Shown: positions 58,028 to 63,553 of the stretch, piece after piece
Layout: every line of letters begins with the position of its first letter
How positions within the stretch are numbered: position 1 is the stretch's first letter
Assembly: GCA_905182795.1 (NCBI GenBank)
Contig: CAJJCZ010000004.1
Coordinates: forward strand, 68,506 to 132,505
Direction: 5' to 3'
DNA length: 64,000 bases
DNA from: an uncultured bacterium
GTDB taxonomy: Bacteria; Fidelibacterota; Marinisomatia; Marinisomatales; Marinisomataceae
Translations under genes and position numbers: made by a program
Notes under the pieces: generated by a model
Seen by the model: only the letters and a program-made list of their open reading frames with translations
What the model was told of the DNA's origin: nothing
Database searches by the model: none

Positions 58028-59305
58028 TTAGAATTGATCTTCTTCTGTTGATCCTGACATTGCACTAGTTGAAGATTCTCCAGCGATACAATTATTTACT
58101 GCATCAAAATAGCCAGTACCTACTTCTTGTTGATGCGCTGAAAATGTATAACCTCTATCGTGATCAGCAAATTCTTTCTCTTGAAGCTCCACATATGCAG
58201 TCATGCCATCTTTAACGTATTTTTTAGTTAAGTCAAACATACCATGCCACATAGAATGAATTCCTGCTAGTGTAATAAATTGAAACTTATATCCCATTGC
58301 ACCCAGTTCTCTTTGAAATTTTGCAATCGTAGCATCATCTAAATTTGCCTTCCAATTAAAAGAAGGAGAGCAGTTATATGCTAACATCAACTCAGGATGA
58401 TCTTTTTTAATAGATTCTGCAAATTTCTTTGCTTCTTCAAGATTTGGTTTACCAGTTTCACACCATAATAAATCAGAATATGGCGCATATGACAGTCCTC
58501 TAGAGATTGCTTGATCAATACCTGGATTTACGCGATAAAAACCTTCTGAAGTTCTTTCTCCGGTGACAAATTTAGCATCTCTTTCATCTATATCTGATGT
58601 TAGTAGATCTGCTGCATTAGCATCAGTTCTTGCTACAATTAATGTTGGGACATTAGAAACATCTGCAGCTAATCTTGCAGCAACCAATTTATTGATAGCT
58701 TCTTGCGTTGGTACTAATACTTTCCCGCCCATATGACCGCATTTTTTAACACTGGCAAGCTGATCTTCAAAATGCACTCCAGCAGCTCCTGCTTTGATCA
58801 TTGCCTTCATTAGTTCAAATGCATTTAACACACCACCAAATCCTGCTTCTGCATCTGCAACAATTGGAGTAAAAAAGTCAACTTTTGGATTACCATTTGA
58901 GTTCATCCATTCAATTTGGTCAGCTCTTTTAAATGAACTATTAATTCTTTTAACAAGAGACGGTACAGAATCAACAGGATACAGGGACTGATCTGGGTAC
59001 ATAGCTCCAGCGCTATTACCATCTGCGGCAACTTGCCAACCTGAACAATAAATAGCTTTTGCGCCAGCTTTTACCCCTTGAATAGCTTGTCCGCCGGTTA
59101 ATGTACCTAGACAATGGACATAATCTTCCTCTTTTAGCATCTTCCAAAGCTTTTCTGCTCCAAGTCTGGCTATTGTATATTCTGGTTGGAGTGAACCTCT
59201 CAACCTTACTACTTCCTCTGCGGTATAAGGTCTTTTAACGTAAGACCATCGTTTATTCATTTCCCAATCATTCTTTAAATCTGAAATTTGTTTTTTTATA
59301 TCCAT
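58028..59305 (-). CDS. aceA: Isocitrate lyase
   Basis: [37 protein letters not shown]. Confidence 0.98.
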
Positions 59306-59306
59306 T

Positions 59307-60878
59307 CTATAATTCCCCGTATGCTTTAATTGTTAAAAAATCTTCTAAGTTTTCTGATAAAGTAATTTCTTCTAAAATAGATCTTGCTCTACTAAAATTA
59401 CCATTATGAAAAGTATCTTTGCCAACTTCATTCTCTACATTTTGAAATTCTTCATCTAAACAAGACAAAAATAAGTTTTTATCAACAATCTTTCCATTAT
59501 CTAACTTGTTTTTATGTTTTATCCATTGCCATATAGATGCTCTAGAGATTTCTGCTGTAGCAGCATCTTCCATCAATCCATAAATAGCCGTACATCCTAC
59601 CCCACTAATCCATGATTCGATATACCTCAAACTAATTCTAATGTTTAAACGTAAACATTCTTCTGTGCTAACTCCGCTATATCCAGATAGTAAATCTTGA
59701 GCACTAACGATATCTTCTGTCATAAAATCTAACTGATTGGTTTGTGATTGCTTAAAATTTTTATGAAAAATTTCATTAACAAAATCAGCAAGTCCGGGAT
59801 GCGCTATCCAGGTTCCATCATGTCCATTTTCAATTTCAAATAACTTATCTTTTCTTACTTTATTCAAAATTTTTCGATTCTCTTCGTTGTCTTTAGAAGG
59901 AACAAACGCAGCCATTCCACCCATTCCAAATGCTCCTCTTTTATGACATGTGTTTACTAGTAAAGTGGAGTACGATGATAAAAATGATTTATCCATTGTA
60001 ATTAGTTGTCGATCAGGTAATACTTTGTCTGGAAACGCTTGTAATGTTTTGATATAACTAAAAATATAATCCCATCTACCACAATTCAATCCCACAATAT
60101 GATCTTTTAAATAATATAAAATCTCTTCCATTTGAAAAACTGCTGGTAAGGTTTCTATCAACAAAGTTACTCTTACTGTACCTCTATCAAGATTGAGTTC
60201 ATCTTCACAAAAACATATTATCTTACTCCACAACTCTGCTTCTTTGTAAGATTCTAATTTTGGAATATAAAAATAAGGTCCTGTACCAAAACTTTTTAAT
60301 GCTTGATGATTGTGGAATAGATACATCGCAAAATCTACCAAAGCCCCATACATGGGTGTACCATCTGCAATAATATGTTTTTCTTTCAAATGAAGCCCCC
60401 TTACTCGACACATTAGAGTAGCAGGATTTGAATTTAAGTTATACTTTTTTAAAGTAACGCGATGTTCAAATGATATAGTTCGATGCGCAGCATCTCTCAT
60501 ATTAACCATTCCATTTTGGATATTTTCCCAAGTTGGAGATAGTGAGTCTTCAAAATCTGCCATAAATACATTTACATTTGCGTTCAAAGCATTGATTATC
60601 ATTTTTCTATCAACAGGCCCTGTGATCTCTAATTTTCTATTAAGCAGATCTATTGGAATGTCTCTGACCTTCCACGCAGACTCACGTATTTCTTTAGTTT
60701 CAGGATCGAATCCAGGTAAGATTCCAGAGTCTACCAACCCTTGATTACTTTTTCTTTCACTAAGAACGTCATCAATTTTGGTATTAAAAATTTTATGAAG
60801 TTTTTCGAGTAGTAATTGCGCATCATCAGGAAAGATATCTGACGCTTGACTTGAAATTTCTTTTAAAAAATGTAGAAT
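59307..60878 (-). CDS. aceB: Malate synthase A, inferred ATT start
   Basis: [49 protein letters not shown]. The frame stays open upstream of the track start (60737) with homologous sequence; SD AAGGGGAG lies 7 nt before ATT 60878. Start position is less certain than the product. Confidence 0.93.
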
Positions 60879-60944
60879 AACTTGTCTCCCCTTAAGTTAA
60901 ATCTAAATAATTGTACACCTTAAAATACTACAAAATATGACAAC

Positions 60945-62234
60945 CTATGATAATTTTTTAGCCATGGCTTCACCTTCAGCCAAATCCACCTTAGAAAATA
61001 CATAAGCACCTAATACAAGAAGTATAATAATAGATTGGAATCCAATGCGAGCCGCGAGCTGTTGATCTGCAATAGCATTATTTATTAGTACTGTAACCGA
61101 ACCCATAAGTAGAGGTCCAAATACTGCCGCAAACTTACCCCACATATTGAAAAAGCCAAAAAACTCAGCAGATTTATTCTCAGGAATAATACGAGAATAC
61201 AAACTTCTACTAAGTGTTTGAATTCCACCTTGAAAACAACCAATTAATCCTGCTAAAATATAAAAATGCCATGCTTCTGTAACAAAATATCCACCCATAA
61301 TAATAAAAATATATGCCATAATAGCTGTATAGATTCCATTCTTTATACCTACTTTATCTGAAAATTTTATATAAAGTAGTGTAGCAAAAAATGCAACAAA
61401 TTGTACAAGAACGAGCGCTCCCATAATAGCCGTTTGATCGAAACCAAGATTAATACCAAAATTTGCCGCCATTCTTACTGTTGTATCTACCCCGTCAATA
61501 TAGAGCCAATAAGCTAGCAAAAAAGTAGCTACTACTTTTAAATTTTTTATTTCATCAAAGGTAGATTTAAACTGAGTGATTCCTTCTTTAACTGCATCAA
61601 CAATACCTTTTTTTTCAGAGTCTTTTTCTTCGTCCACAAATAAAATAAGAGGTATAGAAAATAATGCCCACCATATTCCAACAGATATAAAAGACCATTG
61701 AATTGCAGCAGTACTATCTGCTAAGCCAAAAGATTCAGGATAGGATAACATTAAAAAATTAATTACAATGAGTATCCCTCCCCCAAGATATCCTACAGAA
61801 TATCCTAACGCAGAAACATAATCTACTGTCTTTTCATTACTAACACTCGGCAACAAAGAGTCATAGAAGGTGTTAGCGCCTGAAAATCCAATAGTAGCAA
61901 AGATATAAACCAATAAAGCTATCGGCCACATACCTTGAGCAACAAAGCCTAAACCTACTGTCATTACAATACCCAAAAATGCAAAAAATATTAAAAATCT
62001 TTTCTTATAGCTTCCTCTATCTGCAATTGCACCAAGAAACGGTGCTAATAATGCAACGACAATAGATGCTATAGAATTTCCTAGCCCTAAGTAAAAAGTA
62101 CTAATTGATAGGTTATTTGGATCTGACCAATATTGAGAGAAAAAAATTGGAAAAAATCCTGCCATAACAGTAGTGGCAAATGCAGAATTTGCCCAATCAT
62201 ATAAAGCCCAACTATAAACTTTTTTTTGAATAAT
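60945..62234 (-). CDS. MFS transporter (UMF1/Atg22-like), inferred ATT start
   Basis: The conserved family N-terminus SWALYDWANSAFATTV lies upstream of the first ATG (62165); also GAIAD, YDSLLP, QTLSRSL, FFGFFNMWGK. Confidence 0.88.
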   Translation of the reverse strand: MIQKKVYSWALYDWANSAFATTVMAGFFPIFFSQYWSDPNNLSISTFYLGLGNSIASIVVALLAPFLGAIADRGSYKKRFLIFFAFLGIVMTVGLGFVAQGMWPIALLVYIFATIGFSGANTFYDSLLPSVSNEKTVDYVSALGYSVGYLGGGILIVINFLMLSYPESFGLADSTAAIQWSFISVGIWWALFSIPLILFVDEEKDSEKKGIVDAVKEGITQFKSTFDEIKNLKVVATFLLAYWLYIDGVDTTVRMAANFGINLGFDQTAIMGALVLVQFVAFFATLLYIKFSDKVGIKNGIYTAIMAYIFIIMGGYFVTEAWHFYILAGLIGCFQGGIQTLSRSLYSRIIPENKSAEFFGFFNMWGKFAAVFGPLLMGSVTVLINNAIADQQLAARIGFQSIIILLVLGAYVFSKVDLAEGEAMAKKLS

Positions 62235-63553
62235 TATCCCTTCCTAACAGACAACTTAATTGTTATACCATCTAAATCAAAAGATTCTCTAATCTGATTA
62301 TGTAAATATCGCTTATAAGCAACAGTAATCAGCTTAGGATAATTACAAAAAAAAGCAAATATTGGTGGCAAGAATTGTACTTGATCTACAAATTTTAGCC
62401 TAATTGACTTTCCTTGCAATGCTGGAGGTGGATATTTTCTGACTGCTTTTACAAGCCATTCATTTAATGCTTTTGTACTAATTTTATCTCTTTGTTTTTG
62501 GAATACAGCCCATGTCTCAGATAATACATTCGATATACGTCTTTTTGTTAAAGCAGATACAAAAAGTATAGGATAATATTGCATTAAATGAAATTCATGA
62601 ATCATCTCTTCTTTGAACATCTCTGCAGAAATATTTTTATTAGCAGTTAGGTCCCATTTGTTTACTAGTATTACCATCCTTTTTCCTCTACGGATAATTT
62701 CGCTAGCAATAGTTTTTTCTTGTTTTGTGAAGCCTTTTTCTGCGTCAATAACAAGTAAAACAACATCAGATCGTATTAGTGAGTCTACTGCTCTTAATGA
62801 ACTATAATATTCAATATCATCATCAATCTTACTCCTTTTTCTAAGTCCTGCAGTATCTACAATTTTAATAGAATGTCCATGCCATTTTATGTGAGTATCA
62901 ATAGAGTCTCTCGTCGTTCCAGCAATATCAGAAACAATGGCTTGTTCTTTTTGAATTAAAGCATTCAGAATAGACGATTTTCCAACATTAGGCATTCCAA
63001 CAATTGATATGGACATAGATTCTTCATCCATATCGTCAAAATCTTGTCCTTGAAGATCTTCATGCGCAAATAAAGTATCTAATACATCTCCAACGCCTGC
63101 TCCATTTAATCCTGAGATAGGTACAGGCTCTTTTAATCCTAGACTAAAGAAAGGGAGTATGCGATCACTATGATCTGGGGTATCGCACTTATTAACTGCT
63201 AAAACATAATTTTTACTAGAATGTCTCACCATCTTAGCTAGATGACCATCATTTGGATTCAAGCCATTTTTTCCATCTACCATAAAAATGATGCCGTCAC
63301 ATTCATTTAATGCTTCTATAATTTGTTCTTTAATTTTTTCATTAAAAATATCCTCATTCGAACTAACAAATCCTCCCGTATCAATAATATCAAATCCCTT
63401 ATTAAGCCACTCTCCCGAGGAATAGATTCTATCTCTTGTGACTCCTTCAACTTGATCAACAATAGATGTTCTTCTACCTGAAAGTCGATTAAAAAGTGTT
63501 GATTTCCCGACATTTGGTCGTCCTATTATGGCAATTTTAGATTTTTTATTCAT
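62234..63553 (-). CDS. der: Ribosome biogenesis GTPase Der
   Basis: Two G domains (GRPNVGKSTL / DTGG and GMPNVGKSS / GTTRD / DTAG) plus KH-like C-terminus. Confidence 0.97.
   Translation of the reverse strand: MNKKSKIAIIGRPNVGKSTLFNRLSGRRTSIVDQVEGVTRDRIYSSGEWLNKGFDIIDTGGFVSSNEDIFNEKIKEQIIEALNECDGIIFMVDGKNGLNPNDGHLAKMVRHSSKNYVLAVNKCDTPDHSDRILPFFSLGLKEPVPISGLNGAGVGDVLDTLFAHEDLQGQDFDDMDEESMSISIVGMPNVGKSSILNALIQKEQAIVSDIAGTTRDSIDTHIKWHGHSIKIVDTAGLRKRSKIDDDIEYYSSLRAVDSLIRSDVVLLVIDAEKGFTKQEKTIASEIIRRGKRMVILVNKWDLTANKNISAEMFKEEMIHEFHLMQYYPILFVSALTKRRISNVLSETWAVFQKQRDKISTKALNEWLVKAVRKYPPPALQGKSIRLKFVDQVQFLPPIFAFFCNYPKLITVAYKRYLHNQIRESFDLDGITIKLSVRKG

Follow-up and report, generated by a model that had tools for sequence, protein, structure and literature searches.

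The malate synthase gene aceB in the window, the name used here for the whole 64,000-nucleotide stretch of DNA that was analyzed, appears to be translated from an AUU codon. This start is probably ancestral to the aceB genes of the genus, is positioned by a Shine-Dalgarno (SD) sequence, and would be used inefficiently and in an IF3-sensitive manner, with malate synthase made at a level below isocitrate lyase. The probability of this statement as a whole is estimated at roughly 0.7, and the start site alone, AUU at 60878, is considered highly probable from the sequence comparison. An earlier, sequence-only reading of the window had proposed the non-canonical start, and the comparison strongly supports it, as ATT or ATA is present in all relatives that could be read.

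The source genome (G000) has a size of 0.95 Mb in 24 contigs, with 98.5% completeness and 32.7% GC. The GTDB family to which it belongs contains a single genus, for which there are 38 species genomes of 0.4–1.1 Mb, where the sizes are rounded and the smallest are incomplete assemblies. Three genes follow each other on the minus strand of the window: an Atg22-like MFS transporter gene (60945–62234, likely start ATT 62234–62232) lies upstream of aceB (59307–60878, 523 codons plus the TAG stop at 59309–59307), which is followed by the isocitrate lyase gene aceA (58028–59305, Pfam ICL E = 1.4e-108). The ATG of aceA is located 1 nt past the aceB stop here, and most relatives have a TAATG overlap. 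The aceA SD, GGGGAA at 59313–59318 (minus strand), lies inside the 3′ end of aceB, and either GGGGAA or GAGGAA is conserved at this place throughout all species compared. The aceB–aceA junction is conserved across all relatives and provides the glyoxylate-shunt context.

The aceB protein scores 714.6 bits against TIGR01344 (cut-off 594.5) and covers positions 1–510 of the 511 in the model. The Pfam domains MS_N, MS_TIM-barrel, and MS_C all exceed their cut-offs, and MS_N matches residues 9–69 of the stop-to-stop translation with 30.8 bits (cut-off 23.5). The structure of E. coli malate synthase A (MSA), 3cuz, aligns over residues 12–528 with E = 1.4e-194 and about 60% identity. The block CRVRGLHL and one further block are identical in this alignment, and both are taken here to be catalytic-site motifs of malate synthase A. 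By every test applied, aceB is predicted to be a malate synthase A gene, and a functional one.

The proposed initiation codon, ATT, occupies 60876–60878 of the minus strand. It is preceded by the SD AAGGGGAG (60886–60893), from which it is separated by the 7-nt spacer ACAAGTT, and the frame is bounded upstream by an in-frame TAA (60897–60899). Several statements of the sequence-only reading could be checked directly. The 7-nt distance between AAGGGGAG and the ATT and the 523-aa product both hold on the minus strand, and there is indeed no in-frame ATG, GTG, TTG, or CTG from TAA 60899–60897 to TTG 60737. The other frames were said to be without ATG, and the search of 60880–60950 found zero in any frame. 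The out-of-frame starts upstream of the ATT comprise one GTG and two TTG, each of which runs into a stop within 1–8 codons.

With TTG 60737 as the start, the 46 N-terminal codons at 60738–60875 (minus strand) would be lost. These codons were said to encode the N-terminal part of malate synthase, which is confirmed by the MS_N match and the alignment with E. coli MSA. Relative to the ATT, the E. coli MSA structure begins to align 3 residues downstream and the B. anthracis one 11 residues downstream. Across species, codons 1–47 show dN/dS values of 0.07–0.40 and a mean pN of 0.20 vs a pS of 0.54, while the rest of the gene is tighter, with dN/dS of about 0.05–0.08. Selection on the 46 N-terminal codons is purifying and far from neutral. 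Moreover, the open stretch ahead of the first canonical start measures 53 codons in aceB, the fourth longest of 839 long ORFs in the G000 genome, and is beyond chance given the median of 4 codons in the same set.

The possibility of a faulty sequence was addressed with independent data. All sampled words of the aceB locus are contained in 14 DNA runs (2017–2024), and contigs of 2017 and 2024 runs, either of which may be the source sample, have zero differences over 3.2 kb. A contig from a metatranscriptome library spans 60823–61211, covers both the ATT and the SD, and is identical to the window. The identical contigs of independent runs, the RNA-library contig, and 34 related sequences together exclude the assembly artefact that the sequence-only reading had left as a doubt. 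A sequencing or assembly error, or a pseudogene with a lost start, has nothing more than the missing canonical start in its favor and is already refuted by the exact match of these contigs to the window, the same codon class in 19 species genomes and 15 metagenome contigs, and the low dN/dS of the full-length ORF.

The start codon was compared across 19 distinct orthologous aceB loci with 70–96% amino acid identity. Of the 19 species in this set, all from the genus, 18 have ATT at the aligned codon and one has ATA. Metagenome contigs from JGI, ENA, GOS, and Tara-type projects gave 15 readable and independent sequences, with ATT in 14 and ATA in one. The ATA lineage is represented by a long-read MAG, and ATA recurs in an independent ENA contig. 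ATG was found at this codon in none of the 34 related sequences (19 loci and 15 contigs). Hence the observation that could have overturned the earlier claim, an ATG in the relatives, did not appear, and the relatives, the independent DNA contigs, and the RNA-library contig give ATT or ATA throughout. Measured from the ATT/ATA codon, 18 of the 19 orthologues are 522–523 codons long.

The aceB of G007 (L014/L019, G007:C2) has 556 codons from its ATT, and its match is split into residues 5–78 and 77–529. This suggests either an insert of about 33 codons or a faulty assembly around codon 78.

The frame is also closed from the upstream side. In several species in-frame stops are present 1 to 4 codons upstream of the ATT, for example at position −1 in L024 and at about −4 in L038, L032, and L141-143, and a 96%-identical sister species has an in-frame stop immediately before GTT ATT. 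A start further upstream is therefore impossible in those species. The nearest homologues outside the genus belong to a SAR86-like clade, which includes a protein named Gammaproteobacteria bacterium TMED112; they are 523–526 aa long with about 60% identity, and their Met start falls within one residue of the aceB ATT position. The environmental genus member P0004 (90% identity) has a Met exactly at the ATT codon, and judged by this protein call it seems to have regained a canonical start. The protein of the 67%-identical outlier P0037 begins with LNF. Neither lineage turned up among the metagenome contigs scanned or in a genome search across the order. From this distribution, the ATT/ATA start would date to the common ancestor of the genus aceB genes, with one change to AUA. 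The aceB gene has coding sequence upstream of its canonical start codons and a conserved, stop-bounded AUH codon at SD-compatible spacing, and at the sequence level it can be placed in the AUU-initiated class of infC, pcnB, and ebpA.

Translation from a downstream canonical codon, which here is TTG 60737, would turn the upstream stretch into an untranslated leader. Gene callers do not allow ATT and pick such downstream codons, which explains why the public malate synthase predictions in the genus range from 401 to 533 aa. This reading is highly improbable, since the first canonical in-frame codon wanders among the species (codon 21, 23, 24, 37, 47, 53, 70, 77, 88, or 92) and the only one that is conserved, at codon 92, is an internal Met within a conserved motif. 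Purifying selection acts on the skipped codons, which also match MS_N and the N-terminal ends of both MSA structures, the 53-codon open stretch is extreme for the genome, and TTG 60737 lacks a properly spaced SD.

It is also very improbable that translation begins at a different near-cognate codon nearby, either the ATC just before the ATT or an ATT/ATC at codon 8. Roughly half of the species do have the pair ATC ATT, and Ile at codon 8 is widespread, but GTT, GTC, or AAC stands at −1 in the species without ATC, and codon 8 sits 29–31 nt from the SD. All aceB orthologues have a G-rich purine run upstream of the start, the G core of which ends about 5–7 nt before the ATT/ATA codon, and this conserved spacing exists for that codon only.

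As a control of the method, the same start comparison was carried out for the MFS, patatin-like, infC, and ddl genes, and together they show that it separates old, recent, and absent non-canonical starts. The MFS start changed from TAATG, which overlaps the stop of der, to TAATT only in G000 and its 96%-identical sister (window 62232–62236, minus strand), and it is ATG in all 16 other species. The patatin-like phospholipase gene (G000:C4:64239-65054, plus strand, about 4.2 kb to the left of the window; L043/L075) opens with 80 codons lacking a canonical start and has an ATC, following an ATT, where its relatives have ATG. In G042, the patatin-like gene has ATT at the shared codon and a new ATG four codons upstream.

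The infC gene (G000:C9:110950-111459, plus strand; L044/L105) starts with ATT behind (A/T)AGGAGAG in 28 of 28 aligned genus genomes. The infC region of G052 (L134) contains several stops and may be a broken copy or a misassembly. The ddl gene (G000:C9:25680-26621, plus strand; L042/L045), judged D-Ala-D-Ala ligase-like solely from its N-terminal motif, has its start at one shared codon that lies 5 nt past AAAGGAG and reads ATT in 15, ATC in 13, and ATG in 2 of the sequences from G000 and 29 relatives; in one species an in-frame stop directly precedes it. By this comparison, ddl is a second predicted genus-wide non-canonical start.

The SD of aceB has a duplex energy of −8.2 kcal/mol with the genome's own 16S tail, which places it in the top 5% relative to 676 ATG genes. 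The other genes with non-canonical starts have −7.8 (infC), −8.9 (ddl), and −6.9 kcal/mol (MFS), and the patatin-like gene, whose start mutated recently, has no SD. SD use in the genome is low: 18% of the 676 ATG genes reach −6 kcal/mol or below, compared with 9% of mid-gene control windows. The genes with conserved AUH starts rank among the few strong-SD genes in G000. The 16S tail is canonical (CCUCCUUUC; 16S rRNA end ...GGAUCACCUCCUUUC), as is the initiator tRNA with its three G-C pairs in the anticodon stem.

The initiation region of aceB folds less stably than its shuffles (−6.2 vs −11.9 kcal/mol, z = +2.2), and RNAalifold gave essentially no consensus structure for it. The aceB initiation site is an open, SD-anchored site with a weak codon. 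An RNA switch was considered and rejected, as there was no Rfam match at E ≤ 1 and no consensus fold. Delivery of ribosomes by a frameshift or an upstream ORF was likewise rejected, because the GTG and TTG codons upstream lie in other frames, stop early, and are unconserved, and so was termination–reinitiation, as the MFS stop lies 66 nt away and is too far. Scanning for the sigma-70 consensus gave no minus-strand promoter in the interval from the MFS gene to aceB. The RNA-library contig bridges the two genes, a kind of evidence that cannot prove co-transcription. Conserved blocks also occur upstream of the SD, about 35–40 nt before the ATT (window 60895–60950), namely cTTACAATT in one clade and TTTCACTAGGTTT in the other.

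In the proposed mechanism, the strong SD 5–7 nt upstream and the unstructured, A/U-rich region would place the 30S subunit on the AUU. This codon would then be read by fMet-tRNAfMet with a third-position mismatch, and the protein is therefore expected to begin with Met and not Ile, the predicted N-terminus being M-LHFLK in this species and M-LNFSK in the larger clade. As in E. coli, initiation of aceB would be inefficient and IF3-sensitive. Such weak, IF3-sensitive initiation is likely, as the genome has a canonical initiator tRNA, a canonical 16S tail with its anti-SD, and a canonical infC with an AUU start. Reporter assays in E. coli put the output of AUU, AUA, and AUC at about 1–3% of the AUG level (10.1101/063800). 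Moreover, AUU-started mRNA is a poor competitor of AUG mRNA, and nutrient limitation and ppGpp inhibit non-AUG mRNAs more strongly (PMC5499595).

Malate synthase synthesis would by this mechanism be set well below that of isocitrate lyase. The sequence-only reading had spoken of translational damping of the glyoxylate shunt, an extrapolation from E. coli data; since aceA has its own SD and ATG, damping would hit malate synthase and not the whole shunt. On the other hand, the close spacing or overlap of aceB and aceA could couple their translation or cause polarity, and in that case isocitrate lyase may not be spared. The expected efficiency and IF3 sensitivity are taken from E. coli and applied to a lineage that is distant from it and seldom uses SDs.

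Efficient reading of AUU, without any damping, would follow if SD-anchored initiation in this lineage discriminates start codons differently from E. coli. The low genome-wide SD use is compatible with this, as are the strong SDs (−7.8 to −8.9 kcal/mol) of all three genus-wide AUH genes, infC, ddl, and aceB, two of which are essential housekeeping genes. In addition, context modulates the in vitro effect of rare start codons, and infC achieves good expression from its AUU (PMC5499595). The canonical initiator tRNA and anti-SD, and an AUU-started infC that bears the signature of IF3 autoregulation, argue against it, and AUH starts are rare, with about 5 detected among about 840 long ORFs. Efficient reading is accordingly regarded as unlikely, and weak initiation at the aceB AUU is preferred.

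Whether the weak start serves a purpose is a separate matter. The AUU start may be real and have no regulatory role, having arisen by a near-neutral ATG-to-ATT change under AT-biased mutation in a streamlined 33% GC genome, with the strong SD keeping output sufficient. This is a distinctly possible origin, and the other AUH starts in the genome and genus, together with the ordinary third-base conservation of the aceB codon, make it a serious alternative. The recent changes from ATG to ATT in the MFS gene, shared with the sister species only, and from ATG to ATC in the patatin-like gene, seen in this species only, are in line with it, as is the variation of ddl among ATT, ATC, and ATG within the genus. 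The same is true of aceB itself, with its ATA in one lineage, the canonical start apparently regained in P0004, and the presence of aceBA in only 18 of 38 species, as befits an accessory pathway. Among 30 invariant Ile columns of aceB, 6 are at least as uniform in the third base as the start codon; as its third base is no better conserved than that of ordinary Ile codons, the ATT itself carries no sign of extra constraint. However, none of the 34 sequences has ATG although a single T-to-G change would restore it, ATT/ATA persists across lineages with near-saturated synonymous sites (pS up to 0.7), and the SD is conserved although SDs are rare in this genome.

A more far-reaching idea is that SD-anchored AUH starts are a recurrent device for tuning expression in this low-SD, streamlined SAR406 genus, found genus-wide at infC, ddl, and aceB and still newly arising at other genes, and that the weak AUU of aceB, beside a normally initiated isocitrate lyase, deliberately limits malate synthase to spare part of the glyoxylate for glycine where serA and serC are missing. 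We consider this improbable. The genome has glyA and a gcvP-like gene, and searches of it found neither serA or another D-2-hydroxyacid dehydrogenase nor a serC/AGXT-type class-V aminotransferase, the only class-V member being SufS. No candidate glyoxylate aminotransferase was identified in G000, which, together with the lack of aceBA in half of the species, keeps the glyoxylate-to-glycine idea speculative. The serine/glycine gene set of G000 resembles that of SAR11.

SAR11 is a streamlined marine heterotroph without the phosphoserine pathway. Tripp et al. (2009) reportedly described a glycine riboswitch that lies upstream of the malate synthase gene of SAR11 (Pelagibacter). This riboswitch partitions glyoxylate between malate and glycine. 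It resembles the aceB case as a post-transcriptional control specific to malate synthase, and serA was likewise not found in G000. In contrast to the ligand-sensing RNA of SAR11, aceB has no riboswitch or conserved structure, only a weak start codon. If the idea of deliberate limitation were true, the AUU of aceB would be a hard-wired analogue of the SAR11 riboswitch.

Three known systems come closer to the start codon itself. The infC gene of E. coli and most bacteria has an AUU behind an SD that is conserved in its orthologues, as in aceB. However, the AUU of infC is the sensor of an IF3 autoregulatory loop, whereas aceB encodes a metabolic enzyme without such feedback and would be only a passive target of the IF3 level. 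The E. coli gene pcnB, for poly(A) polymerase I, is like aceB a non-translation gene held low by AUU, in a different gene and a different phylum, and is one of only two confirmed AUU cases in E. coli (10.1101/063800). In Enterococcus faecalis, the annotated downstream ATG of ebpA is wrong and the true start is an upstream ATT, which lowers EbpA expression relative to an engineered ATG (PMC4447247). The ebpA start was demonstrated by mutagenesis and reporters, whereas the case for aceB is one of comparative genomics.

Among the papers searched, none links malate synthase to a non-canonical start. A genus-wide AUU on a central-metabolism gene is unusual, and aceB would be a stable addition to the very short list of conserved non-canonical starts in bacteria. 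For SAR406, an abundant ocean group, metabolic reconstructions and protein databases carry truncated or extended malate synthase models. The same annotation problem affects ddl, and the MFS transporter and the patatin-like lipase in G000. The pairing of conserved AUH starts with strong SDs in an SD-poor genome also offers a testable idea on start-codon selection. If the damping is true, it would set the ratio of isocitrate lyase to malate synthase and hence the fate of glyoxylate in a streamlined heterotroph.

The origin of the gene was followed with a quick maximum-likelihood tree that was midpoint-rooted. The genus aceB genes and P0037 are sister to the SAR86-like clade (SH-aLRT 97), followed by Vibrionaceae, while the aceB genes of other families in the same order form a distant clade with 46–51% identity. 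This position suggests that aceB was exchanged horizontally with gammaproteobacteria, in a direction that the midpoint root does not fix.

A further ORF in the genome (G000:C9:75113-75985, plus strand) runs for 23 codons without a start, contains an ATT preceded by a moderate SD of −7.0 kcal/mol, and may be another non-canonical start.
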